This document shows, one piece after another, positions 1-35,657 of a stretch of DNA of 35,657 bases (its first letter is position 1; each line of letters opens with the position of its first letter). The DNA lies in the IMG/VR virus record IMGVR_UViG_2534681762_000014; one strand, 5' to 3'. The notes under the pieces are model-generated. The model did not search any database and was not told the DNA's origin. It was given only the letters and a program-made list of their open reading frames with translations. This DNA is from a virus. Its lineage: Duplodnaviria > Heunggongvirae > Uroviricota > Caudoviricetes. The translations under genes were made by a program, and so were the position numbers.

Positions 1-1011
1 TTATAACGTCACTCCGCCTTTTAGTGGATTCAGAGCGACGGCATTTTGCAGATAGTCAGGCGCAAGGTGCGCATAGGCCATCGTCTGCTGAATGCTCGCA
101 TGTCCCAGAATCTGTTGCAGTGCGATTATATTGCCCCCATTCATCATGAAATGGCTTGCGAATGTATGCCGCAGGATGTGGGTTGCCTGATTGGGTGGTA
201 TATCAGGTTTCACTCTGCGTAAAATCCCGCAAAATTTCTCATAATCAACTTTGAATAATTTGGCGCTGGCCTCCTCTTTAACTTTTTTCTCCAGTTCCTC
301 AGAAATCGGCACGGTTCGCTTTTTACCGTTTTTGGTTTTCAGGAAGGTAACCCTGCAATTTGTAATCTGTGCTGGTTTTAGCGTGGCAACTTCCGTCCAT
401 CTTCCTCCAGTACTCAGACATAAAAGCGCGACAAGTAAGTCATCACCAGCCAAAACATTTAACAGTTTTTCGATTTCTGCTTTTTCCAGGAACGTCATTT
501 CAGGGTTGGCCTCCGCCAGTGGCGGCAGTCCGTGAATTGGGTGTTGCCCGGAAAATTCATCCAATTGAATTAATTTTGTGAACATGCCGGATAATCGGTA
601 CATGTCACGGTTTATCGTTGCGGCACTGATACCATCACGTAGTCGCATGGAACGATAATCCATCAAAGCCCTTTTGCTCATCCTGCTCACTGGTATATCA
701 CCTATGCCGCTGATGGTTTTGAGTAGATGATTAAACTCTTTTGTTCCATGCTCGTGGTTTTGCCCGTGATATTTCCACCAGATGTCCAGCAACTCACTCA
801 AAGTCCGGCGGTCTGCTCGCTGGCCTCCCCATTCTTTCTGACTGGCATTGGCGATTGTGTATCGCTCAAATGCTAGTGCTTCAGCTTTTCTTTCGAATTT
901 CCTGCGGATGCGTTTTCCGTCGCGACCGCGAGGTCTAATGTCCACTTCATAGCGACCATCATCGAGCTTCTTAATTGCCATAAGAAAGCCCTCCGGCGCT
1001 GTATTCACCAT
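1..1011 (-). CDS. int: P2-type tyrosine integrase, 336 aa, complete (stop at positions 1-3)
   Basis: Translation carries the tyrosine recombinase C-terminal catalytic region (HTFASHFMMNGG...LGHASIQQTMAYAHL) and an N-terminal arm-binding region; position and orientation next to C match P2. Confidence 0.9.
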   Translation of the reverse strand: MVNTAPEGFLMAIKKLDDGRYEVDIRPRGRDGKRIRRKFERKAEALAFERYTIANASQKEWGGQRADRRTLSELLDIWWKYHGQNHEHGTKEFNHLLKTISGIGDIPVSRMSKRALMDYRSMRLRDGISAATINRDMYRLSGMFTKLIQLDEFSGQHPIHGLPPLAEANPEMTFLEKAEIEKLLNVLAGDDLLVALLCLSTGGRWTEVATLKPAQITNCRVTFLKTKNGKKRTVPISEELEKKVKEEASAKLFKVDYEKFCGILRRVKPDIPPNQATHILRHTFASHFMMNGGNIIALQQILGHASIQQTMAYAHLAPDYLQNAVALNPLKGGVTL

Positions 1012-3509: not shown

Positions 3510-5778
3510 AGCCTCCGGGCGTTTTGTCCCTCCGTCAGCATTTGCCGCAGGCACCGGTAAGATGTTTACCGGTGCTTATGCATGGAACGCGCCACGCGAG
3601 GCCGTCGGGCGCGAAAGACCCCTTACACGTGATGAGATGCGTCAGGTGCAAGGTGTTTTATCCACGATTAACCGCCTGCCTTACTTTTTGCGCTCACTGT
3701 TTACTTCACGCTATGACTACATCCGGCGCAATAAAAGCCCGGTGCACGGGTTTTATTTCCTCACATCCACTTTTCAGCGTCGTTTATGGCCGCGCATTGA
3801 GCGTGTGAATCAGCGCCATGAAATGAACACCGACGCGTCGTTGCTGTTTCTGGCAGAGCGTGACCACTATGCGCGCCTGCCGGGAATGAATGACAAGGAG
3901 CTGAAAAAGTTTGCCGCCCGTATCTCATCGCAGCTTTTCATGATGTATGAGGAACTCAGCGATGCCTGGGTGGATGCGCATGGCGAAAAAGAATCACTGT
4001 TTACGGATGAGGCTCAGGCTCACCTGTATGGTCATGTTGCTGGCGCTGCACGAGCTTTCAATATTTCCCCTCTCTACTGGAAAAAATACCGTAAAGGACA
4101 GATGACCACGAGGCAGGCATATTCTGCCATTGCCCGTCTGTTTAACGATGAGTGGTGGACTCATCAGCTTAAAGGCCAGCGTATGCGCTGGCATGAAGCG
4201 TTACTGATAGCTGTCGGGGAGGTCAATAAAGACCGTTCTCCTTATGCCAGTAAACACGCCATTCGTGATGTGCGTGCGCGCCGCCAGGCAAATCTGGAAT
4301 TTCTTAAATCGTGTGACCTTGAAAACAGGGAAACCGGCGAGCGCATCGACCTTATCAGTAAGGTGATGGGCAGTATTTCTAATCCTGAAATTCGCCGGAT
4401 GGAGCTGATGAACACCATTGCCGGTATTGAGCGTTACGCCGCCGCAGAGGGTGATGTGGGGATGTTTATCACGCTGACCGCGCCGTCAAAGTATCACCCG
4501 ACACGTCAGGTAGGAAAAGGCGAAAGTAAAACCGTGCAGCTTAATCACGGCTGGAACGATGAGGCATTTAATCCAAAGGATGCGCAGCGTTATCTCTGCC
4601 GTATCTGGAGCCTGATGCGCACGGCATTCAAGGATAATGATTTACAGGTCTACGGTTTGCGTGTCGTCGAGCCACACCACGACGGAACGCCGCACTGGCA
4701 TATGATGCTTTTTTGTAATTCACGCCAGCGTAACCAGATTATCGAAATCATGCGTCGCTATGCGCTCAAAGAGGATGGCGACGAAAGAGGAGCCGCGCGA
4801 AACCGTTTTCAGGCAAAACACCTTAACCGGGGCGGTGCTGCGGGATATATCGCGAAATACATTTCAAAAAACATCGACGGCTATGCACTGGATGGTCAGC
4901 TCGATAACGACACCGGCAGGCCGCTGAAAGACACTGCAGCGGCTGTTACCGCATGGGCGTCAACGTGGCGCATCCCGCAATTTAAAACGGTTGGCCTGCC
5001 GACAATGGGGGCTTACCGTGAACTACGCAAATTGCCTCGTGGCGTCAGCATTGCTGATGAGTTTGACGAACGCGTCGAGGCTGCTCGCGCTGCCGCAGAC
5101 AGCGGTGATTTTGCGTTGTATATCAGCGCGCAGGGTGGGGCAAATGTCCCGCGCGATTGTCAGACTGTCAGGGTTGCCCGTAGCCCGTCGGATGACGTTA
5201 ACGAGTACGAGGAAGAAGTCGAGAGAGTGGTCGGCATTTACGCGCCGCATCTCGGCGCGCGTCATATTCATATCACCAGAACGACGGACTGGCGCATTGT
5301 TCCGAAAGTGCCGGTCGTTGAGCCTTTGACTTTAAAAAGCGGCATCGCCGCGCCTCGGAGTCCTGTCAATAACTGTGGAAAACTCACCGGTGGTGATACT
5401 TCGTTACCGGCTCCCACACCTTCTGAGCACGCCGCAGCAGTGCTTAATCTGGTTGATGACGGTGTTATCGAATGGAGTGACCCGGAGGTCGTGAGGGCGC
5501 TCAGAGGTGCATTAAAACACGGTCGGAGAACGCCAAGTCGTCAGCAAAGAAACGGAAGCCCGTTAAAACCGCATGAAATTGCACCATCGGCCAGAATGAC
5601 CCGGTCGGAAAGAATGCAAATTACCCGTATCCGCGTTGACCTTGCTCAGAAGGGTATCAGGCCGCAGCGATGGGAGCTTGAGGCGCTGGCGCGTGGCGCG
5701 ACCGTAAATTATAACGGGAAAAAATTCACGTATCCGGTCGCTGATGAGTGGCCGGGCTTTACTGGCAGTACCACATAG
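3499..5778 (+). CDS. A: Replication initiation endonuclease A (rolling-circle initiator), about 759 aa
   Basis: Long ORF with P2 gpA-like sequence; start taken at the ATG at 3499 (MAVKASGRF); conserved Tyr-containing region (GAAGYIAKYISK). Confidence 0.85.
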   Translation: MAVKASGRFVPPSAFAAGTGKMFTGAYAWNAPREAVGRERPLTRDEMRQVQGVLSTINRLPYFLRSLFTSRYDYIRRNKSPVHGFYFLTSTFQRRLWPRIERVNQRHEMNTDASLLFLAERDHYARLPGMNDKELKKFAARISSQLFMMYEELSDAWVDAHGEKESLFTDEAQAHLYGHVAGAARAFNISPLYWKKYRKGQMTTRQAYSAIARLFNDEWWTHQLKGQRMRWHEALLIAVGEVNKDRSPYASKHAIRDVRARRQANLEFLKSCDLENRETGERIDLISKVMGSISNPEIRRMELMNTIAGIERYAAAEGDVGMFITLTAPSKYHPTRQVGKGESKTVQLNHGWNDEAFNPKDAQRYLCRIWSLMRTAFKDNDLQVYGLRVVEPHHDGTPHWHMMLFCNSRQRNQIIEIMRRYALKEDGDERGAARNRFQAKHLNRGGAAGYIAKYISKNIDGYALDGQLDNDTGRPLKDTAAAVTAWASTWRIPQFKTVGLPTMGAYRELRKLPRGVSIADEFDERVEAARAAADSGDFALYISAQGGANVPRDCQTVRVARSPSDDVNEYEEEVERVVGIYAPHLGARHIHITRTTDWRIVPKVPVVEPLTLKSGIAAPRSPVNNCGKLTGGDTSLPAPTPSEHAAAVLNLVDDGVIEWSDPEVVRALRGALKHGRRTPSRQQRNGSPLKPHEIAPSARMTRSERMQITRIRVDLAQKGIRPQRWELEALARGATVNYNGKKFTYPVADEWPGFTGSTT

Positions 5779-6081: not shown

Positions 6082-7077
6082 ATGACTACTAAGCCAATGA
6101 GTCGACTATATGAAAAAATCAGCAAGGCGGGGTTTAGCCGTTCATTTATACGCAAAGTCTTACCTTCATGGTGGGACGACAGCCTAGCTGATACACCTTC
6201 AGGTAAGCAGTACGCTAGCCTTCATTTGGCTCGTGTTTTTAGTTTGTCTCCAGAAAGTCTCAAGGATGGTTCTGAATCTGCGTCTTTCAACCTTGGTGGA
6301 AATCATCGCTTTAAACATCGTGTAAATCTTGGTGAGGAAGACCTGAATGTTGCTACTGCCGTTGCATATTCTGCGGCGAGGATTGTAGCAGAGAATTTCA
6401 GTATCCCGTTTAATCCAAACGCAGAACTTAATTGGCAGGCAGTGAGGGATAAACTGCTCAGCGATAAAAAGTGGGTGGATTTGGCTTCTCTGATTGGTTT
6501 TTGCCATTCGTTAGGCATTCCTGTTGTCTACATTAAGAACTTTCCAACGGGTGCGGCAAAAATGGCTGGCCTTGCATTAAGTGTATCTGGTAGGCCAGTA
6601 ATTGTTTTAACCCAAGCTAAAACCCATGGATTTATGCTATTTGATTTGGCTCATGAGCTTGGTCATATTGCACTAGGCCATCTCAATGATCTCAATGGGG
6701 GGGTCCATGTTGATCGCAAAATTGAAGCGCAGTCTACTAACAATCTTGAGGTGGCAGCTAACAAATATGCCTTTGGTTTGATTGGTGGAAAAGAGACTTT
6801 GAGAATAGCACCTACAAGGGGCTATCTCACAGGTGAAAAATTGGCTAGAGCTGCGCTAGTATATGGTACACAGCATTGCATAGAGCCAACTCATGTAGCT
6901 TTGAACTATGGTCACAATTTAGGGCACTGGGGAGTGGCTGTTAACGCTGTTAAAAGTATTTGCGTGGGACAACCGACAGACCAATCTTTAGCTAGGCAGC
7001 TCATGATGGATGCCATCGATCACGAAAATATTAATGACGACGACTTAGAACTTTTAACGACGCTATGTGGGGTTTAA
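6082..7077 (+). CDS. ImmA/IrrE-family zinc metallopeptidase-domain protein, 331 aa, hotspot cargo gene 1
   Basis: HExxH motif in the typical ImmA/IrrE context (FMLFDLAHELGHIALGH at about residues 185-200); good RBS (GGAGG) upstream; AT-rich relative to the phage backbone. Confidence 0.7.
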   Translation: MTTKPMSRLYEKISKAGFSRSFIRKVLPSWWDDSLADTPSGKQYASLHLARVFSLSPESLKDGSESASFNLGGNHRFKHRVNLGEEDLNVATAVAYSAARIVAENFSIPFNPNAELNWQAVRDKLLSDKKWVDLASLIGFCHSLGIPVVYIKNFPTGAAKMAGLALSVSGRPVIVLTQAKTHGFMLFDLAHELGHIALGHLNDLNGGVHVDRKIEAQSTNNLEVAANKYAFGLIGGKETLRIAPTRGYLTGEKLARAALVYGTQHCIEPTHVALNYGHNLGHWGVAVNAVKSICVGQPTDQSLARQLMMDAIDHENINDDDLELLTTLCGV

Positions 7078-7080
7078 GTA

Positions 7081-7603
7081 GTGATCGTTCTTTCAGACAA
7101 TGATGTCATTTTGAAACTAGCGCAGTGTAATTTACTCCGTTACCTTCCTGAGATTTTGGAAGAGGATCCGCGAGGCATCTATGTTAGTCCGACGGCTCGT
7201 TTTCAATTATTACCGCGCAATACTGATAAAGCCATTAAGAAGTGCGGTAGTGTGGCTATTTACGAAAATGTGGAAAGATTTCTAGGAAGTGTGCAAGTTA
7301 TTGATGAAATCAGAAACGATGATTTGCTGATTAAACTTGGTGAGATACCACACATAGATGTCGGCGAACAACAGCTTTTAGCTGCATGCGTTGAGCAACC
7401 AGGAGCTTTGTTCATGACAGGTGACCGTCGATGTTTGCAGGCTGTGATGGACAATCAGACTATTGTCGCTACGGTTCATGCGCGTCTAATTGACTCAGTA
7501 ATAACCTATGAGAGTGCTCTTTTGCTTTCTGTTCGCGTTTTAGGATTTGAGACTCTATATCAACAACTACAAACGAACCCGAATCCAGATGCAATGCTGA
7601 GGA
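7081..7603 (+). pseudogene. PIN-like putative nuclease, N-terminal fragment (residues 1-174); gene interrupted by IS10
   Basis: GTG start 3 bp after the peptidase stop; N-terminal MIVLSDNDVIL resembles the first PIN strand with its acidic residue; later TGD motif; the frame runs into IS10 at 7604. Confidence 0.55.
7595..7603. repeat. IS10 target-site duplication, left copy (TGCTGAGGA)
   Basis: Identical 9-mer directly flanks both IS10 ends; fits the IS10 GCTNAGC preference. Confidence 0.85.
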
Positions 7604-8932
7604 CTGATGAATCCCCTAATGATTTTTATCAAAATCATTAAGTTAAGGTAGATACACATCTTGTCATATGATCAAATGGTTTCGCCAAAAATCAATAATC
7701 AGACAACAAGATGTGCGAACTCGATATTTTACACGACTCTCTTTACCAATTCTGCCCCGAATTACACTTAAAACGACTCAACAGCTTAACGTTGGCTTGC
7801 CACGCATTACTTGACTGTAAAACTCTCACTCTTACCGAACTTGGCCGTAACCTGCCAACCAAAGCGAGAACAAAACATAACATCAAACGAATCGACCGAT
7901 TGTTAGGTAATCGTCACCTCCACAAAGAGCGACTCGCTGTATACCGTTGGCATGCTAGCTTTATCTGTTCGGGCAATACGATGCCCATTGTACTTGTTGA
8001 CTGGTCTGATATTCGTGAGCAAAAACGACTTATGGTATTGCGAGCTTCAGTCGCACTACACGGTCGTTCTGTTACTCTTTATGAGAAAGCGTTCCCGCTT
8101 TCAGAGCAATGTTCAAAGAAAGCTCATGACCAATTTCTAGCCGACCTTGCGAGCATTCTACCGAGTAACACCACACCGCTCATTGTCAGTGATGCTGGCT
8201 TTAAAGTGCCATGGTATAAATCCGTTGAGAAGCTGGGTTGGTACTGGTTAAGTCGAGTAAGAGGAAAAGTACAATATGCAGACCTAGGAGCGGAAAACTG
8301 GAAACCTATCAGCAACTTACATGATATGTCATCTAGTCACTCAAAGACTTTAGGCTATAAGAGGCTGACTAAAAGCAATCCAATCTCATGCCAAATTCTA
8401 TTGTATAAATCTCGCTCTAAAGGCCGAAAAAATCAGCGCTCGACACGGACTCATTGTCACCACCCGTCACCTAAAATCTACTCAGCGTCGGCAAAGGAGC
8501 CATGGGTTCTAGCAACTAACTTACCTGTTGAAATTCGAACACCCAAACAACTTGTTAATATCTATTCGAAGCGAATGCAGATTGAAGAAACCTTCCGAGA
8601 CTTGAAAAGTCCTGCCTACGGACTAGGCCTACGCCATAGCCGAACGAGCAGCTCAGAGCGTTTTGATATCATGCTGCTAATCGCCCTGATGCTTCAACTA
8701 ACATGTTGGCTTGCGGGCGTTCATGCTCAGAAACAAGGTTGGGACAAGCACTTCCAGGCTAACACAGTCAGAAATCGAAACGTACTCTCAACAGTTCGCT
8801 TAGGCATGGAAGTTTTGCGGCATTCTGGCTACACAATAACAAGGGAAGACTTACTCGTGGCTGCAACCCTACTAGCTCAAAATTTATTCACACATGGTTA
8901 CGCTTTGGGGAAATTATGAGGGGATCTCTCAG
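7604..8932 (+). mobile_element. IS10 (IS4 family), complete 1329-bp copy
   Basis: Outside end CTGATGAATCCCCTAATGATTTT at 7604 and inside end ...GGGGATCTCTCAG at 8932; length exactly 1329 bp; encodes the 402-aa IS10 transposase. Confidence 0.9.
7711..8919 (+). CDS. tnp: IS10 transposase, 402 aa
   Basis: Translation recognised as Tn10/IS10 transposase (MCELDILHDSLYQF...HGYALGKL). Confidence 0.9.
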   Translation: MCELDILHDSLYQFCPELHLKRLNSLTLACHALLDCKTLTLTELGRNLPTKARTKHNIKRIDRLLGNRHLHKERLAVYRWHASFICSGNTMPIVLVDWSDIREQKRLMVLRASVALHGRSVTLYEKAFPLSEQCSKKAHDQFLADLASILPSNTTPLIVSDAGFKVPWYKSVEKLGWYWLSRVRGKVQYADLGAENWKPISNLHDMSSSHSKTLGYKRLTKSNPISCQILLYKSRSKGRKNQRSTRTHCHHPSPKIYSASAKEPWVLATNLPVEIRTPKQLVNIYSKRMQIEETFRDLKSPAYGLGLRHSRTSSSERFDIMLLIALMLQLTCWLAGVHAQKQGWDKHFQANTVRNRNVLSTVRLGMEVLRHSGYTITREDLLVAATLLAQNLFTHGYALGKL

Positions 8933-8941
8933 TGCTGAGGA
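8933..8941. repeat. IS10 target-site duplication, right copy (TGCTGAGGA)
   Basis: Exact match to 7595-7603. Confidence 0.85.
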
Positions 8942-9060
8942 TGGCTATGCGTTCTCGCAGCTCAGAAGATGTTTGTGGCTGCTTCTTTTCTTATACGCGC
9001 CCTGTATACGATTATCTGGCCTTTAAACAACATTTACCGGATCGTGCTTGGTTGCTTTAA
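8942..9060 (+). pseudogene. PIN-like gene, displaced C-terminal fragment (38 codons plus stop)
   Basis: When one duplication copy and IS10 are removed, the 7081 frame continues open for 39 codons to TAA at 9058-9060. Confidence 0.5.
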
Positions 9061-9123
9061 TCTATCCGTAATGAGTGTTTAGCGCATCAATTTGCATGAG
9101 TATATGATGCACGAATATTATAT

Positions 9124-9149
9124 AGCCCGTCAGTAATGGCGGGCTTTTT
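9124..9149 (+). terminator. Rho-independent terminator candidate downstream of the hotspot operon
   Basis: Stem AGCCCGTC/GGCGGGCT with 6-nt loop followed by TTTT. Confidence 0.45.
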
Positions 9150-9193
9150 ACTATCTGGTGCATCTGCATCAAAACCGCCCCATGAAGCGGGCG

Positions 9194-9212
9194 GGCGAGG
9201 CGGGGAAAGCAC
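9194..9212. other. cos: cos site: P2-type 19-nt cohesive-end sequence GGCGAGGCGGGGAAAGCAC
   Basis: Matches the P2 cohesive end as I recall it; located between the hotspot and the portal gene as in P2. Confidence 0.6.
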
Positions 9213-9354
9213 TGCGCGCTGGCGGTGGTGCTGATTTTATTTTTTCAGCGTCTGAGCGCGTCGTGATGGCGTTTAGATTGTGCGTCGGGGCGTTGGTGTA
9301 TCTAAGGGGTGTTTTGTGCGGTGGTGAGCGTGTGAGGGCGTGATGACGGGATGT

Positions 9355-9376
9355 AAAAAAGCCGCCCGCAGGCGGC
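9355..9376 (-). terminator. Rho-independent terminator downstream of Q (minus strand)
   Basis: GC-rich hairpin GCCGCC-CGCA-GGCGGC preceded on the plus strand by A6 (U-run on minus), immediately after the Q stop. Confidence 0.6.
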
Positions 9377-9381
9377 GATGT

Positions 9382-9875
9382 TCAGTCGTTGTCAGTGTCC
9401 AGTGAGTAGTTTTTAAAGCGGATGACCTCCTGACCGAGCCAGCCGTTTATCTCTCGGATCCTGTCCTGTAACGGGATAAGCTCATTGCGGACAAAGACCT
9501 TTGCCACTTTCTCAATATCACCCAGCGACCCGACGTTCTCCGGCTTGCCGCCCATCAACTGAAAGGGGATGCGGTGTGCGTCCAGCAGGTCAGCGGCGCT
9601 GGCTTTTTTGATATTAAAAAAATCGTCCTTCGTTGCCACTTCACTGAGTGGGATAATTTTAATGCCGTCAGCTTTCCCCTGCGGGGCATAGAGAAACAGG
9701 TTTTTAAAGTTGTTGCGGCCTTTCGACTTCACCATGTTTTCGCGAAGCATTTCGATATCGTTGCGATCCTGCACGGCATCGGTGACGTACATGATATATC
9801 CGGCATGTGCGCCATTTTCGTAATACTTGCGGCGGAACAGCGTGGCCGACTCATTCAGCCAGGCAGAGTTAAGGG
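9382..9875 (-). pseudogene. Q: Portal protein Q, C-terminal fragment (gene split by IS66-family insertion)
   Basis: Translation continues the portal sequence (...NSAWLNESATLFRRKYY...) from the fragment at 12575-13123; the apparent Met at 9886-9888 lies inside the IS. Confidence 0.8.
9868..9875. repeat. IS66-family target-site duplication, left copy (GTTAAGGG)
   Basis: Same 8-mer at 12575-12582, flanking the element. Confidence 0.75.
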
Positions 9876-9928
9876 GTAACCGGCTCATTTAAACCGTCTG
9901 GTCTGTTTCCTCCGGCTCTACAAAAATA

Positions 9929-10606
9929 ATGTCCATCATTTTTAATGGACACTATCGTATGAAACACCGGACCTGGATCACTGAAGCTTTACGTCTTCAC
10001 TTTGAAGAACATTTACCCCGGGTTGTGGCCGGGCGTCGCCTGGGTGTACCAAAATCAACAGTTTGTAGTATGTTCGTGCGCTTTCGGAGAGCTGGCCTTT
10101 CGTGGCCTTTGCCCGCAGGCATGTCGGAGCAGGAACTTGATGCCTGCCTTTACGGACAATTTTCCACGGTACCAGTCGTACGTCCTGAAAGCACCGTTAT
10201 ATCCGAAGCCCCCGTGGTAAAAAAACGTCCCCGGCGGCCCAACTTCCCTTATGAGTTTAAAATCGCCTTAGTGGAGCAGTCACTGCAGCCCGGAGCCTGT
10301 GTGGCGCAGATCGCCCGGGAAAACGGAATCAACGATAACCTGCTCTTCAACTGGCGCCATCAATACCGGAAAGGTGGCCTGCTGCCTTCCGGAAAAAATA
10401 TGCCGGCACTGCTTCCCGTGACGTTAACGCCGGAGCCGGATAATAAAATCCCGGCCCCCGCACAGGAACCAGAGCAGATAAATACACCGTCCGACAGTCT
10501 GTGTTGTGAGCTGGTTCTGCCGGCCGGAACTCTCAGGCTTAAAGGTAAACTGACGCCGGCGTTATTACAGACACTTATCCGCGAAATAAAAGGGAGCAGC
10601 CACTGA
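9929..10606 (+). CDS. tnpA: IS66-family accessory protein TnpA (orf1), with an N-terminal HTH-like extension
   Basis: Contains the IS66 orf1 signature (PNFPYEFKIALVEQSLQPGACVAQIARENGINDNLLFNWR); true start may be the downstream Met at 9959. Confidence 0.7.
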   Translation: MSIIFNGHYRMKHRTWITEALRLHFEEHLPRVVAGRRLGVPKSTVCSMFVRFRRAGLSWPLPAGMSEQELDACLYGQFSTVPVVRPESTVISEAPVVKKRPRRPNFPYEFKIALVEQSLQPGACVAQIARENGINDNLLFNWRHQYRKGGLLPSGKNMPALLPVTLTPEPDNKIPAPAQEPEQINTPSDSLCCELVLPAGTLRLKGKLTPALLQTLIREIKGSSH

Positions 10607-10953
10607 TGATATCTCTCCCTGCAGGTTCGCGTATCTGGCTGGTTGCAGGTATCACCGATATGCGAAATGGCTTTAACGGCCTGGCATCAAAAGTTCAGAA
10701 CGTCCTGAAGGATGACCCGTTCTCCGGACACCTGTTCATCTTCCGCGGACGCCGGGGTGACCAGATAAAAGTGTTGTGGGCTGACAGTGACGGACTGTGC
10801 CTCTTCACCAAACGCCTGGAGCGGGGCCGCTTCGTCTGGCCAGTCACCCGTGACGGCAAGGTGCACCTTACTCCGGCTCAGTTATCCATGCTTCTTGAAG
10901 GTATCAACTGGAAGCACCCGAAACGAACGGAACGCGCTGGAATCCGCATATAA
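10606..10953 (+). CDS. tnpB: IS66-family TnpB (orf2), 115 aa
   Basis: Characteristic size and sequence; overlapping stop/start with orf1. Confidence 0.8.
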   Translation: MISLPAGSRIWLVAGITDMRNGFNGLASKVQNVLKDDPFSGHLFIFRGRRGDQIKVLWADSDGLCLFTKRLERGRFVWPVTRDGKVHLTPAQLSMLLEGINWKHPKRTERAGIRI

Positions 10954-10972
10954 CCCGTTGTAAAGTGAGGAT

Positions 10973-12544
10973 ATGGACACCTCACTTGCTCATGAGAACG
11001 CCCGCCTGCGGGCACTGTTGCAGACGCAACAGGACACCATACGCCAGATGGCTGAATACAACCGCCTGCTCTCACAGCGGGTGGCGGCTTATGCTTCCGA
11101 AATCAACCGGCTGAAGGCGCTGGTTGCGAAACTGCAACGTATGCAGTTCGGTAAAAGCTCAGAAAAACTTCGTGCAAAAACCGAACGGCAGATACAGGAA
11201 GCACAGGAGCGAATCAGCGCACTTCAGGAAGAAATGGCGGAAACGCTGGGTGAGCAATATGACCCGGTACTGCCATCCGCCCTGCGCCAGTCTTCAGCCC
11301 GTAAACCGTTACCGGCCTCACTTCCCCGTGAAACCCGGGTTATCCGGCCGGAAGAGGAATGCTGTCCTGCCTGTGGTGGTGAACTCAGTTCTCTGGGATG
11401 TGATGTGTCAGAGCAACTGGAGCTTATCAGCAGCGCCTTTAAGGTTATCGAAACACAACGTCCGAAACTGGCCTGTTGTCGGTGCGACCATATCGTGCAG
11501 GCACCAGTACCTTCAAAACCCATTGCACGCAGTTATGCCGGAGCGGGGCTCCTGGCCCATGTCGTCACCGGAAAATATGCAGACCATCTGCCGTTATACC
11601 GCCAGTCAGAGATATACCGCCGTCAGGGTGTGGAGCTGAGCCGTGCCACACTGGGGCGCTGGACAGGTGCCGTTGCTGAACTACTGGAGCCGCTGTATGA
11701 CGTCCTGCGCCAGTATGTGCTGATGCCCGGTAAAGTCCATGCTGATGATATCCCCGTCCCGGTCCAGGAGCCGGGCAGCGGTAAAACCCGGACAGCCCGG
11801 CTGTGGGTCTACGTCCGTGATGACCGTAACGCCGGTTCACAGATGCCCCCGGCGGTCTGGTTCGCGTACAGTCCGGACCGGAAAGGTATCCATCCACAAA
11901 ATCACCTGGCCGGTTACAGCGGTGTGCTTCAGGCCGATGCTTACGGTGGTTACCGGGCGTTATACGAATCCGGCAGAATAACGGAAGCCGCGTGTATGGC
12001 TCATGCCCGGAGAAAAATCCACGATGTGCATGCAAGAGCGCCCACCTACATCACCACGGAAGCCCTGCAGCGTATCGGTGAACTGTATGCCATCGAGGCA
12101 GAGGTCCGGTGCTGTTCAGCAGAACAGCGTCTGGCGGCAAGAAAAGCCAGAGCCGCGCCACTGATGCAGTCACTGTATGACTGGATACAGCAACAGATGA
12201 AAACACTGTCGCGTCACTCAGATACGGCAAAAGCGTTCGCATACCTGCTGAAACAGTGGGATGCACTGAACGTGTACTGCAGTAATGGCTGGGTGGAAAT
12301 CGACAACAACATCGCAGAGAACGCCTTACGGGGAGTGGCCGTAGGCCGGAAAAACTGGATGTTCGCGGGTTCCGACAGCGGTGGTGAACATGCGGCGGTG
12401 TTGTACTCGCTGATCGGCACATGCCGTCTGAACAATGTGGAGCCAGAAAAGTGGCTGCGTTACGTCATTGAACATATCCAGGACTGGCCGGCAAACCGGG
12501 TACGCGATCTGTTGCCCTGGAAAGTTGATCTGAGCTCTCAGTAA
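10973..12544 (+). CDS. tnpC: IS66-family transposase TnpC, 523 aa
   Basis: Characteristic size; N-terminal coiled coil, CxxC-type zinc-finger region, DDE core. Confidence 0.85.
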
Positions 12545-12574
12545 ATATCAATACGGTTCTGACGAGTCGCTTAC

Positions 12575-12582
12575 GTTAAGGG
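12575..12582. repeat. IS66-family target-site duplication, right copy (GTTAAGGG)
   Basis: Exact match to 9868-9875. Confidence 0.75.
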
Positions 12583-13123
12583 CGCTGAGATATTCCGGCA
12601 GGCCGTACAGCTCCTGATTAATATCCGGCTCCAGCAGGTGAAACACGGAGCCGGGTGCGAAGGCTGTCGGCTCGTTGAAGGACGGCACCCACCAGTAAAC
12701 ATCCTCCTCCACACCACGGCGGGTATATTTTGCCGGTGAGGTTTCCAGTCTGATGACCTTACCGGTGGTGCTGTAACGCTTTTCCAGAAACGCATTACCG
12801 AACACCAGAAAATCCAGCACAAAGCGGCTGAAATCCTGCTGGGAAAGCCACGGGTGCGGAATAAACGTTGAAGCCAGAATATTACGTTTGACGTAAATCG
12901 GTGAGCTGTGATGCACGGCAGCACGCAGGCTTTTTGCCAGACCGGTAAAGCTGACCGGTGGCTCATACCATCTGCCGTTACTGATGCACTCGACGTAATC
13001 CAGAATGTCACGGCGGTCGAGTACCGGCACCGGCTCACCAAAGGTGAATGCCTCCATTTTTGGGGCACTGGCAGTCATTTTTTTTGCCGCAGGTTGCGGT
13101 GTTTTCCCTTTTTTCTTGCTCAT
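12575..13123 (-). pseudogene. Q: Portal protein Q, N-terminal fragment
   Basis: Starts MSKKKGKTPQPAAKKMTA...; the last 9 codons of the listed ORF (to 12548) are IS-derived. Confidence 0.8.
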
Positions 13124-25574: not shown

Positions 25575-26282
25575 CGCCTATAAGGCTCTCTTACCAGCCG
25601 CGCCCTAACAGGCGCACACGATCTGACATTTGCATCCAACTTCGTTACTTACGGCCCGTAAACGGGCTGCCCGGATAGGGAATCGATAACTGCTCTCCCA
25701 TTTTATCCTCTTCAAGCTGGTGCTTTATGTAATCCTGTATCTTCGCCGTGTTCTTACCCACCGTATCGACGTAATACCCTCTGCACCAGAACTCCCTGTT
25801 CCTGTATTTGAATTTCAAATCACCAAACTGCTCGTAAAGCATCAGACTGCTTTTCCCTTTCAGATATCCCATAAAGCCGGGTACGCTCATTTTGGGCGGG
25901 ATCTCCACAAGCATATGGATATGATCTGCACAGCATTCAGCTTCCAGAATCCGTACACTTTTCCACTCACACAGCTTTCTCAAAATACAGCCTATTGCTC
26001 TACGCTTCTCTCTGTAGAACACCTGTCTTCGGTATTTTGGCGCAAATACTATGTGATATTTACAGTTCCATCGGGTGTGCGCTAAGCTCTTTTCGTTCCC
26101 CATTGGGACCCCCTTTTGATTTCTTGTTTGACACTTGCAGTTGCCAGACCGCAAGGTGTTTTAACAAATCAAAAGGGGTTTTAATAACTGGCTCAAAGCT
26201 GAAAGCTTTCCGGAACCCCCAGCCTAGCTGGGGGTTTTCTGTGCACAAAAAAGCCCCTGCATTTCTGCAGGGGCCTGATATC
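25575..26282 (-). mobile_element. IS200 (IS200/IS605 family), about 0.7 kb; boundaries approximate within some tens of bp
   Basis: Encodes IS200 TnpA; left-end region has two strong hairpins (26216-26234 and 26253-26274), the outer one preceded by A6 on the plus strand (a terminator on the tnpA strand), as described for IS200; no terminal inverted repeats expected. Confidence 0.75.
25645..26106 (-). CDS. tnpA: IS200 transposase TnpA (Y1 HUH type), about 153 aa
   Basis: Translation recognised as IS200 TnpA (MGNEKSLAHTRWNCKYHIVFAPKYRR...HIHMLVEIP...), with HUH motif HIH. Confidence 0.85.
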   Translation of the reverse strand, partial: PMGNEKSLAHTRWNCKYHIVFAPKYRRQVFYREKRRAIGCILRKLCEWKSVRILEAECCADHIHMLVEIPPKMSVPGFMGYLKGKSSLMLYEQFGDLKFKYRNREFWCRGYYVDTVGKNTAKIQDYIKHQLEEDKMGEQLSIPYPGSPFTGRK

Positions 26283-26358
26283 TGGTGCTGGCTGAATGGA
26301 ATCGAACCATCGTCTTTCCGCGTACAATGCGAAAGCTCTACCACTGAGCTAAACCAGC
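26283..26358 (-). tRNA. tRNA-like sequence, possible tRNA-Thr (anticodon UGU) variant or pseudogene, with encoded CCA
   Basis: Reverse complement reads GCTGGTT-TA-GCTCAGTGGTAGAGC-T-TTCGC-ATTGTAC-GCGGA-AAGAC-GATGG-TTCGATT-CCATT-C-AGCCAGC-A-CCA: canonical D-arm and T-loop, 7-bp acceptor stem, anticodon loop centred on TGT, but one extra nucleotide between the T-stem and acceptor stem. Confidence 0.45.
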
Positions 26359-26401
26359 AATGGTGCAGAATAATACCCGGATTCTGATAAAATGCAATAG
26401 C

Positions 26402-26830
26402 TTATTGTGGCTGAACAGGCCATTCGATATCAGGTGCAGTTGAAATGCCGAGAGCTTCCAGCGCATCGAGATAATCCAGCCACAGGTTATACTGCGCCAG
26501 CTCATCCCCCTTCAGTCTGCCAATAGCCGCTTTGCCCGGCCACTGCCTGCTGCTCATGTAATCGTTGGCCTGGCTAATCAACGCCTGTTTTTTAACGTCA
26601 GCTGCTGCAATGAGTTCTTTGCGTGTAGGTGGGGGCATATCCACCCATACTGGCATTCCATCGTCTGCTCCCAGAGCTTTTCCAGGTGGTGGTGACCCTG
26701 TAAATGTACTGACTATATCATCGCTGATATCAATCATATCAGACATGTCCCATCCCGCCGATTCATAAGACGACAGCCAGGATTTCGGGAAAAAGTTCAC
26801 AGTCGTTGCAGACCATTTATATCCGTTCAT
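26402..26830 (-). CDS. Alternative tail fibre assembly chaperone (Tfa'), inverted orientation
   Basis: 142 aa; same conserved C-terminal block as the tfa at 25037-25468, divergent N-terminus; convergent with it. Confidence 0.75.
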   Translation of the reverse strand: MNGYKWSATTVNFFPKSWLSSYESAGWDMSDMIDISDDIVSTFTGSPPPGKALGADDGMPVWVDMPPPTRKELIAAADVKKQALISQANDYMSSRQWPGKAAIGRLKGDELAQYNLWLDYLDALEALGISTAPDIEWPVQPQ

Positions 26831-26834
26831 TTAT

Positions 26835-27195
26835 TTAGCTCCCGAACGCCAGCCAGAATATTGTCATTGTACTGGCTGTATTCGTTGTGTATATGCTGAA
26901 TCGCGACGTGCTATCTACATTGACGTTGAAACTGACAGGTCCGGTTCCATAGAGGCCGGGGTTAACCAGAGCAGGAATCACACAGGAGCAACGGTTAGGA
27001 AACGGAACAGGAAAAAACACAGCGTTACCTGATGAACCACCGGTGATGTTTGGTGCATTTCCCCCATCAATACCATGCCATTTGGAAACCGGTAATAAAA
27101 TGCCATGGTTGTCGAACCGCCCGTAAAACTGCTCATATCCGGTATCTGATTCGCACCAGTACCCACGTCTCGTTGCGCGGCCGATTTCAATTGAA
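26835..27195 (-). pseudogene. Alternative tail-fibre variable tip (Hv'), frameshifted
   Basis: Minus strand encodes LKSAAQRDVGTGANQIPDMSSF..., homologous to the H tip, then changes frame (two ORFs, 26978-27235 and 26835-27020); segment length is out of phase with the H frame. Confidence 0.6.
27133..27195. repeat. Right inverted repeat of the invertible tail-fibre segment
   Basis: Reverse complement matches 24661-24723; the TTCAATTGAA palindrome is at 27186-27195. Confidence 0.65.
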
Positions 27196-27262
27196 CGTTT
27201 AAGAAAATGCAGAGATAACGGCTAACTGGCATCATCTCCGGTTTTTATTCAGGGGATCCATC

Positions 27263-27856
27263 ATGCTTATTGGCTATGTCCGCGTATCAACAAATGACCA
27301 GAATACGGAATTGCAGCGTAACGCGCTGGAGTGTGCAGGATGTGAGCTGATTTTTGAGGACAAAATCAGCGGCACGAAGTCCGACTGGCCGGGACTGAAA
27401 AAACTGCTCAGGACATTATCGGAGGGGGATACACTGGTAGTCTGGAAGCTGGACCGGCTGGGGCGTAGTATGCGGCATCTGGTCATTCTGGTTGAGGAGC
27501 TGCGCGAACGCGGCATTAATTTTCGCAGCCTGACGGATGCCATTGATACCAGCACGCCAATGGGGCGTTTTTTCTTTCATGTGATGGGTGCCCTGGCTGA
27601 AATGGAACGAGAACTCATTGTCGAGCGGACTCGCACCGGACTGGAAGCGGCCAGAGCTAAAGGTCGTATTGGTGGCAGACGTCCGAAGCTCACCGCGAGT
27701 GAGTGGGAACAGGCAGGACGGTTGCTGGCTGCGGGTGAATCACGTCAACGCGTGGTGCTGATTTTTGATATTGGCCTGTCCACGCTCTATAAAAAATTCC
27801 CCTCATCAGCGGCAAAGAATAAATTGTGTCATCCCTTAGCCAACCGGGACAAATAG
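27263..27856 (+). CDS. Serine recombinase, Din-family DNA invertase (Pin/Gin/Cin/Hin-like), 197 aa
   Basis: N-terminal catalytic domain with the active-site Ser in MLIGYVRVSTNDQ, the SMRHL and GRFFFHVMGALAEMERE blocks, and a C-terminal HTH; sits immediately outside the right inverted repeat. Confidence 0.9.
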   Translation: MLIGYVRVSTNDQNTELQRNALECAGCELIFEDKISGTKSDWPGLKKLLRTLSEGDTLVVWKLDRLGRSMRHLVILVEELRERGINFRSLTDAIDTSTPMGRFFFHVMGALAEMERELIVERTRTGLEAARAKGRIGGRRPKLTASEWEQAGRLLAAGESRQRVVLIFDIGLSTLYKKFPSSAAKNKLCHPLANRDK

Positions 27857-34218: not shown

Positions 34219-34299
34219 TGTTTTGTTTTTATCTGTTTGTTTTATAAGGATAAATTAACTAAAATGGCACCATCAACAAAACCGGAAGAGGTGCTCGCG

Positions 34300-34518
34300 A
34301 TGTTTCATTGTCCTTTATGCCAGCATGCCGCACATGCGCGTACAAGCCGCTATATCACTGACACGACAAAAGAGCGTTATCACCAGTGTCAGAACGTGAA
34401 TTGCAGCGCCACGTTCATCACTTATGAGTCGGTACAGCGATACATCGTGAAGCCGGGAGAAGTCCACGCCGTAAGGCCGCACCCATTGCCGTCAGGGCAG
34501 CAAATTATGTGGATGTAA
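34300..34518 (+). CDS. ogr: Late-gene transcription activator Ogr (zinc finger), 72 aa
   Basis: MFHCPLCQHAAHARTSRY... with CxxC...C...C spacing; last phage gene before the right junction. Confidence 0.85.
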   Translation: MFHCPLCQHAAHARTSRYITDTTKERYHQCQNVNCSATFITYESVQRYIVKPGEVHAVRPHPLPSGQQIMWM

Positions 34519-34528
34519 TCACAAAAAT

Positions 34529-34556
34529 AGCCCCTCAGTTGAGGGGCTTTATTTAT
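34529..34556 (+). terminator. Rho-independent terminator after ogr
   Basis: Stem AGCCCCTC/GAGGGGCT with 4-nt loop, then a T-rich tract. Confidence 0.65.
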
Positions 34557-34646
34557 GGTCGATGTGGACGCTATGTGGACGGTGGTTGATATAAATCCAT
34601 TTATATCATCAGGTTAGGTGCTTTTTTGTGACACCATCCCTGTCTT

Positions 34647-34673
34647 CCCCCACATGATGTGGGGGTTTTTTTT
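34647..34673 (+). terminator. Strong Rho-independent terminator (C5ACA-loop-TGTG5 followed by T8), probably host-derived
   Basis: 8-bp GC-rich stem with an 8-T run; lies between the prophage end and fieF. Confidence 0.7.
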
Positions 34674-34754
34674 ATCCTCAATTTGCCTGCTGCTTAATGC
34701 ATTGCAGATGATTTGCTTCCGTTATACTAGCGTCAGTTGATAGCGGGAGTATTT

Positions 34755-35657
34755 ATGAATCAATCTTATGGACGGCTGGTCAGTCGGGCGGCGATTGCTG
34801 CGACGGCGATGGCTTCGCTGCTATTGCTGATTAAAATTTTTGCATGGTGGTATACCGGGTCGGTGAGTATTCTCGCCGCGCTGGTGGATTCGCTGGTGGA
34901 TATCGGCGCGTCGTTGACGAATTTACTGGTGGTGCGATATTCCCTGCAACCTGCCGACGATAATCACTCGTTTGGTCACGGTAAAGCTGAGTCCCTCGCG
35001 GCGCTGGCGCAAAGTATGTTTATCTCCGGTTCGGCACTATTCCTGTTTTTGACGGGTATTCAACATCTGGTATCTCCAACACCGATGACAGATCCAGGCG
35101 TCGGGGTTATCGTGACAATTGTGGCGCTAATTTGTACGATTATCCTTGTCTCGTTTCAGCGTTGGGTGGTGCGCCGGACGCAAAGCCAGGCGGTGAGGGC
35201 TGATATGCTACATTACCAGTCTGATGTTATGATGAACGGCGCAATTCTGCTGGCGCTGGGGTTGTCCTGGTACGGCTGGCATCGCGCCGATGCTCTGTTT
35301 GCATTGGGAATCGGCATCTATATTTTATATAGCGCGTTACGCATGGGATATGAGGCGGTACAGTCATTACTGGATCGCGCATTGCCTGATGAGGAACGGC
35401 AAGAAATTATTGATATCGTGACTTCCTGGCCGGGTGTTAGCGGCGCTCACGATCTTCGCACGCGGCAGTCAGGGCCGACCCGCTTTATTCAGATTCATTT
35501 GGAAATGGAAGACTCTCTGCCTTTGGTTCAGGCACATATGGTGGCGGATCAGGTAGAGCAGGCTATTTTACGGCGTTTTCCGGGATCGGATGTGATTATC
35601 CATCAGGACCCCTGTTCCGTCGTACCCAGGGAGGGTAAACGGTCTATGCTTTCATAA
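34755..35657 (+). CDS. fieF: Cation-diffusion-facilitator family Fe/Zn efflux transporter FieF (YiiP), 300 aa, host gene
   Basis: Translation recognised as E. coli FieF/YiiP ([38 protein letters not shown]...); complete, ends at the window edge. Confidence 0.9.

Follow-up and report, generated by a model that had tools for sequence, protein, structure and literature searches.

The right end of the window (the whole 35,657-nt stretch of DNA that was analysed, IMG/VR record IMGVR_UViG_2534681762_000014) raises the question of what becomes of a host RNA gene at the border of a prophage. Between the last phage gene, ogr, and the host gene fieF lies a strong hairpin, which the earlier note had tentatively regarded as the 3' end of cpxP and of its small RNA CpxQ, displaced by a prophage that would have integrated there; the CpxQ sRNA was described in 2016 (PMC4817254). 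The analysis leads with high confidence to the conclusion that 34519-34754 is the attR of a Wphi-type, P2-like (Peduovirus) prophage inserted in cpxQ, with cpxQ rebuilt at attL and the copy at attR most likely inert. The elements on which this reading is built are the following.

1-981, minus strand: tyrosine integrase of the Wphi type (322/326 aa, 99%, identical to the Int of phage Wphi; Pfam Int_N and Phage_integrase)
34300-34518, plus strand: ogr, late-gene activator, the last phage gene before attR (Pfam Ogr_Delta, 1.1e-21)
34529-34558, plus strand: intrinsic terminator-like hairpin of ogr with its tail (terminator scan; predicted hairpin in a 150-nt fold)
34549-34629, no strand: phage attP arm kept at attR, 81 bp (one difference from the Wphi attP arm)
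34630-34676, plus strand: attachment core, 47 bp, GACACCATCCCTGTCTTCCCCCACATGATGTGGGGGTTTTTTTTATC (alignments with K-12 attB, Wphi attP, and attL and attR of four lysogens)
34630-34673, plus strand: 5'-truncated copy of cpxQ, nt 15-58 of 58 (annotation and sequence of K-12 cpxQ, b4716)
34630-34656, no strand: segment that necessarily holds the strand-exchange point (distribution of the loop alleles at attR and attL)
34647-34673, plus strand: Rho-independent terminator of CpxQ/cpxP (terminator scan, K-12 alignment, fold)
34677-34754, plus strand: host cpxQ-fieF spacer, the upstream and putative promoter region of fieF, unaltered (100% identical to K-12)
34755-35657, plus strand: fieF, metal exporter of the CDF family and nearest host gene on the right-hand side of the prophage (ORF list)

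This arrangement bears out what had been read from the letters. The ogr gene, annotated in the same place in strain RM11911 and in Wphi as ogrK or ogr, is indeed followed by its own terminator, a stem-loop at 34529-34548 with 8 bp (6 of them G-C) and a 4-nt loop, then TTTATTTATGG; the terminator scan scores this hairpin on the minus strand as well. The spacer that follows, previously put at about 90 bp, is present; it measures 98 bp (34549-34646) and includes the phage attP arm with its integrase arm sites. The second hairpin lies before fieF exactly where it had been placed: its stem pairs 34647-34654 with 34658-34665 (8 pairs, 6 G-C) around the 3-nt loop TGA, whose last base, 34657, is polymorphic (A in the window, C in K-12), and eight T follow at 34666-34673. 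The fieF gene, annotated in all matched genomes, starts with the ATG at 34755 and ends with the last base of the window. At the opposite end, position 1 is the first base of the int stop codon on the minus strand; thus attL lies just to the left of position 1, and the left junction falls outside the window, as had been recognised. An ORF at 34618-34740 (40 aa, GTG start) that spans the core was discarded as spurious, since it crosses an sRNA terminator and the host spacer.

In K-12 MG1655, cpxQ (b4716) encodes a 58-nt ncRNA and lies between cpxP and fieF, 10 bases from the stop codon of the former and 81 nt from the start of the latter. Positions 34630-34790 of the window differ from the K-12 cpxQ-fieF region at a single base, 34657, so that 124 of the 125 nt of 34630-34754 match the K-12 interval, in the same synteny; the core corresponds to K-12 cpxQ nt 15-58 followed by ATC, the single difference being the loop base. 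On the strength of this alignment with one mismatch, 34630-34673 represents cpxQ nt 15-58, with the hairpin as the cpxP/CpxQ terminator, and the predicted correspondence with the cpxP 3' region extends over these nucleotides and the entire cpxQ-fieF spacer. The idea that the terminator is the CpxQ 3' end is correct; of the gene, 44 of the 58 nt are found at attR and the 5' 14 nt, TTTTCCTTGCCATA, are absent, replaced by the phage sequence GGTGCTTTTTTGT; farther to the left the sequence has no K-12 counterpart. [quoted passage not shown] The likeness to CpxQ of E. coli (b4716) and Salmonella and to Hrs1 of Erwinia therefore covers nt 15-58, with one loop base changed, whereas the seed and the processed 5' end are lacking, so that the attR copy is a fragment. 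It does not follow cpxP, which is located beyond the left end of the 34.6-kb prophage, but is preceded by ogr and the phage arm. Its predicted fold retains the 8-bp GC stem and the U8 tail of native CpxQ; thus the terminator module of the gene is there, while the full 58 nt and the position in the cpxP 3' UTR are not.

The phage side of the junction was identified by comparison with Wphi and its relatives. A search of phage databases with 34230-34680 gave matches of 97-99% identity, among them Wphi, P24B2, fiAA91-ss and L-413C-like Yersinia phages, and all of these matches end exactly at 34676. In Wphi the attP region reads, in order, ogr, the terminator, ATGTGGACGCTATGTGGAC, GATATAAATCCATTTATATC, GGTGCTTTTTTGT, the 47 bp GACACC...TTTTTTTTATC, unrelated phage DNA and int; as arm and core are the same there as in the window, 34549-34629 represents the attP arm of the phage. 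This arm contains a 20-bp palindrome, GATATAAATccATTTATATC, at 34588-34607 and two direct TGTGGAC repeats (34563-34569 and 34574-34580), putative integrase sites of the arm type for which the consensus tgTGGaCa has been reported in this phage group (PMC3448106); the attL arm of RM11911 has two further copies. Over the whole window TGTGGAC is not enriched (3 found, 4.9 expected); its significance lies solely in the tandem arrangement within the arm. Phage Wphi and the E. coli W prophage Wphi1 share with the window the 47-bp core, the TGTGGAC arm, the cpxP-fieF site and Int, but cargo and IS content differ, the window having an IS10 element, an IS200-type element and, within the portal gene, an element of the IS66 family. 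The segment therefore has the marks of an attR: the cognate integrase at the far end of the prophage, a core identical to attP, arm repeats, and an empty attB in strains that are not lysogenic.

Left junctions were read in four lysogens, RM11911, E. coli W (the natural Wphi lysogen), M217 and E2, all of which have the host flank of the window; RM11911, W and M217 also share its attR arm and core, M217 differing in the loop base. In RM11911, whose ogr-fieF interval is 100% identical to that of the window, int has cpxP as its left neighbour, and attL consists of the cpxP stop codon, a complete 58-nt cpxQ, ATC, phage DNA with TGTGGAC repeats, and int, the core ending 116 nt beyond the int stop codon. 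The other three lysogens have the same attL layout, while the phage-side flank at attL varies between lysogens. The supposition that the upstream host gene is cpxP is thus confirmed in all four. Since attL of these related lysogens carries the core, the 47 bp, common to attP, attB, attL and attR, form a direct repeat at both prophage ends; the duplication is seen in related lysogens, the window's own attL lying outside the window. A repeat shared with the left flank had been anticipated within 34560-34650, and it does exist in these lysogens, although at 34630-34676. Uninterrupted cpxP-cpxQ-fieF with a single copy of the core, that is, an empty attB, is found in K-12 and in F5505-C1, the latter having been taken for a C-allele lysogen until its site proved empty. 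Among 5426 complete E. coli genomes, the attR junction is present in 787 (about 14.5%) and the int region in 790, and about 4600 are without the junction. Escherichia sp. MOD1-EC7003 provides another flank of the lysogen type.

The loop polymorphism made it possible to ask which copy of the terminator is the host's own. Alleles were counted in the 5426 complete genomes with allele-specific 36-mers, in which each 28-nt BLAST seed spans the SNP. Allele A occurs in 4488 genomes, at 5153 places, and allele C in 1088 genomes including K-12, never twice within one genome; as 4488 and 1088 add up to 5576, at least 150 genomes carry both. Perfect matches to the phage arm plus core (attR type) have C in 156 genomes and A in 438, those to the core plus the phage-side AA (attL type) have C in none and A in 735, and phage records have C in none and A in 62. 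The same distribution was read directly in M217 and E2, two unrelated mixed lysogens, with A at attL and C at attR. The host C always stays on the fieF side, which places the strand exchange in 34630-34656, on the 5' side of core position 28; the loop, the 3' arm and the U-tract at attR are the host's original terminator, because the host-only C occurs at attR but at no attL, and the terminator used by cpxP-cpxQ in lysogens is phage DNA, because attL carries the phage allele A. The window's own crossover is not readable, as its attR has A, shared by the phage and most hosts; E. coli W, with A at both ends, is likewise uninformative.

These counts also decide between the possible origins of the hairpin. 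As attP has an identical hairpin, and within the window the two origins look alike, 34647-34673 might be the attP copy, with the host terminator retained next to cpxP at attL and the crossover to the right of it; this is very improbable given the 156 genomes with C at attR, the absence of C from attL and from phage records, and the 735 genomes with A at attL. Still less credence can be given to a chance resemblance, by which an unrelated terminator, located upstream of fieF or belonging to the phage, would merely look like CpxQ: GC-rich hairpins with a T-run behind them are frequent (a 2.2-kb scan gave 6 terminator-like sites, 2.1 expected), but the K-12 alignment, with its near-complete identity and conserved synteny, together with a match in all 5426 genomes, rules it out. 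Accordingly, the claim that the terminator is the original cpxP/CpxQ 3' end is upheld; its displacement is true of the host copy, now at attR, and untrue in that the core was duplicated, so that cpxP keeps a terminator and cpxQ is rebuilt at attL. A location of the loop SNP inside the overlap region was considered and set aside, since a heteroduplex predicts mixed outcomes and those seen are uniform, with no C at attL and C never found twice. The overlap may be CCATCCC (34634-34640), a candidate chosen from its sequence: it is flanked by the inverted GACA/TGTC that forms the small upstream hairpin of CpxQ in the predicted fold, and this geometry would, by inference, resemble the stem-loops used by tRNA-gene-targeting integrases.

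On this reading, integration occurred by site-specific recombination, catalysed by the tyrosine integrase, into the 3' two-thirds of cpxQ, which arises from the 3' UTR of cpxP by processing. In the phage, attP carries a 47-bp copy of cpxQ nt 15-58 and ATC, and recombination takes place within the first 27 bp of the core. The left product consists of cpxP, the host 5' part of cpxQ and the phage-derived cpxQ terminator, amounting to a full-length cpxQ; in the window's prophage this gene would sit about 120-180 nt to the left of position 1, where a phage arm of about 116 nt with TGTGGACACTATGTGGACA is expected and, reading rightward, the cpxP stop codon, TAAACCCTG, cpxQ, ATC and AA.... The right product comprises the phage arm, the core, the host's original loop, 3' arm and U-tract, and the untouched fieF upstream region. 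The cpxQ gene at attL is presumably functional. The copy at attR is most likely an inert remnant, in view of the missing CpxQ 5' seed and the lack of an evident promoter, and would act at most as a backup terminator between ogr and fieF that insulates fieF. This copy is separated from the cpxP promoter and from the native processing context; an independent transcription unit for the fragment was dropped from consideration because the promoter scan found no sigma-70-like site on either strand between ogr and the core (34519-34660).

An alternative fate for the fragment is that transcripts of ogr or of the late tail operon read through into it, yielding a chimeric RNA composed of the phage arm and CpxQ nt 15-58 and ending at the CpxQ terminator. 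Such an RNA would keep the Hfq module and the internal C-rich region behind a new 5' end, and it is improbable that it functions as an sRNA or competes for Hfq and CpxQ targets. In favour of read-through, the ogr terminator is moderate with an imperfect tail, the attR copy retains both predicted hairpins and the U8 tail, and the phage side directly 5' of the core is U-rich (GCUUUUUUGU) and loosely resembles the native CUGUUUUCC. However, the promoter scan just mentioned was negative, the 5' seed for nhaB and cfa is missing, the prophage copy in the window is riddled with IS elements, and the ogr and late genes of P2 are silent in a lysogen, all of which make the chimera itself unlikely. It is similarly doubtful that read-through upon induction, or at a low level in the lysogen, would produce an Hfq-bound sRNA or sponge that retunes the Cpx envelope-stress regulon; if true, the chimera would act in about 15% of E. 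coli strains, those with a Wphi-type prophage. The inert copy at attR remains the preferred reading.

Searches with Rfam models gave a result that concerns the model rather than the locus. At gathering thresholds no CpxQ family matched in the window, and under relaxed thresholds no family matched the cpxQ copy on the sense strand. The Hrs1 model (RF02628) aligns with window positions 34607-34673 on the minus strand, antisense to cpxQ, with 31.8 bits (gathering score 56.4), and likewise in antisense with K-12 (L001:1816-1888) and with three Erwinia loci, where the matches are above the gathering score (L105:5958-6030, L109:4969-5042, L113:586-659). Hrs1 is an Hfq-regulated sRNA of Erwinia; according to its source paper, the hrs1 gene is flanked by cpxP and fieF, and all three share one orientation. 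Hrs1 thus looks like the CpxQ orthologue, and the RF02628 model, which begins with AAAAAAA, the complement of the U-tail, appears to be reverse-complemented; a CpxQ family for the sense strand is absent from Rfam. The antisense match was consequently rejected as evidence on the locus, as a problem of orientation in the model.

The sequence targeted by the phage is widely conserved. The 27-nt crossover segment is present without change in at least 120 species-representative genomes of enterobacteria, the matches listed including Salmonella, Klebsiella, Citrobacter, Enterobacter, Kosakonia, Mixta, Erwinia and Edwardsiella; among the matches listed, 117 of 120 loci also keep the 5' 14-mer exactly and all 120 have A in the loop, which indicates that the K-12 allele C is derived. 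The use of an RNA gene as attachment site follows a known pattern, in which attP copies the 3' part of the gene, so that the gene is regenerated on one side and a truncated duplicate is left on the other (PMC3448106; PMC3032704). The 3' ends of RNA genes are targeted likewise by 186 (tRNA-Ile), by Fels-2 and SopE-phi (ssrA) and by P2-like prophages at cyaR and rybB, the latter two sRNA genes being occupied in E. coli W, B and Crooks (PMC3032704 Table 2). The gene cpxQ differs from these tRNA, tmRNA and sRNA targets in being derived from a 3' UTR, with no promoter of its own; as CpxQ is processed from the cpxP mRNA, the cpxQ copy regenerated on integration must also provide the terminator of cpxP.

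The Wphi integration site was identified earlier, and long cores have been said to keep the targeted RNA genes intact (PMC3448106); the list of insertion sites in the E. coli W genome paper gives 'cpxP-fieF: Wphi1 (P2)' (PMC3032704). The published descriptions of the site that were found, 'cpxP-fieF' and intergenic, are older than the name cpxQ. Within the library searched, a literature search for CpxQ with prophage or integrase found no paper joining CpxQ and the Wphi site, and a broader one on sRNA genes as integration sites of P2-like phages gave nothing useful. The junction itself is already documented, and the crossover mapping and the overlap with cpxQ are minor refinements; the link between the Wphi site and cpxQ follows directly from a combination of known facts.

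Beyond the junctions, the prophage carries several insertions and cargo genes.

6082-7077: M78-peptidase/IrrE-like ORF (weak PADLOC matches to capP and RmrA)
7081-7641: unannotated 186-aa ORF, adjoining the IS10-type element
7649-7718, minus strand: RNA-OUT of an IS10-type element (99.5 bits), with its DDE transposase at 7711-8919
9382-9888 and 12548-13123, minus strand: halves of the portal gene (98-99% identical to the intact RM11911 portal protein)
9929-10606, 10606-10953 and 10973-12544: ORFs of an IS66-family element, the second TnpB_IS66 and the third DDE_Tnp_IS66
25645-26154, minus strand: IS200-type Y1 transposase
26113-26236: STnc490 match in the upstream region of the Y1 transposase (146 bits)
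26283-26358, minus strand: tRNA-Thr(UGU)-like gene (Rfam tRNA, 56 bits, and ARAGORN)
26402-26830, minus strand: inverted tail-fibre assembly gene
27263-27856: serine resolvase/invertase

The IS66-family element (about 9889-12547) interrupts the portal gene near codon 183, and this copy of the prophage is therefore probably unable to form particles; a search for inverted repeats marking IS ends in 7400-12500 found none with the settings used. The IS10-type element lies in the cargo region (6082-8919) that follows the replication gene, and this region could hold a regulator of a defence or cargo module, disrupted by IS10 or not. The tail-fibre genes and the sheath gene enclose an island (25645-27856) that resembles an invertible tail-fibre segment into which an IS200 element has inserted. 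In M217 (NZ_AP019189.1, L009:956-3111) ogr is separated from the attR arm by an IS150 and a gene for a hypothetical protein of 213 aa, and other phage genes are broken by elements of the IS66 and IS21 families; IS elements seem to insert frequently in Wphi-type prophages at the cpxP-fieF site. Many complete-genome records of lysogens begin inside the prophage (NZ_CP104509.1, L011 and L006; NZ_AP021890.1; NZ_CP172169.1; and others), attR being located about 26-30 kb into the record and int a few kb from its end; in NZ_CP104509.1 a DUF5405 gene spans the record origin, which suggests that an assembly-rotation tool picks a phage gene as the starting point.

The overall understanding of the system is unchanged by these points, which bear mainly on how the locus is annotated and on the origin of its parts. 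In about one seventh of E. coli genomes, the interval between ogr and fieF is an attR with a partial duplicate of cpxQ, and that between cpxP and int should be read as an intact cpxQ. The terminator and Hfq module of CpxQ in lysogens are supplied by the phage, and hosts of the K-12 type, with allele C, become A in the expressed copy of cpxQ on lysogenisation. With a long-known attachment site that falls within cpxQ, Wphi-type phages conform to the rule that a conserved RNA gene is targeted and rebuilt, and cpxQ as the Wphi attB adds an sRNA derived from a 3' UTR to the RNA genes that serve as targets of phage integration.
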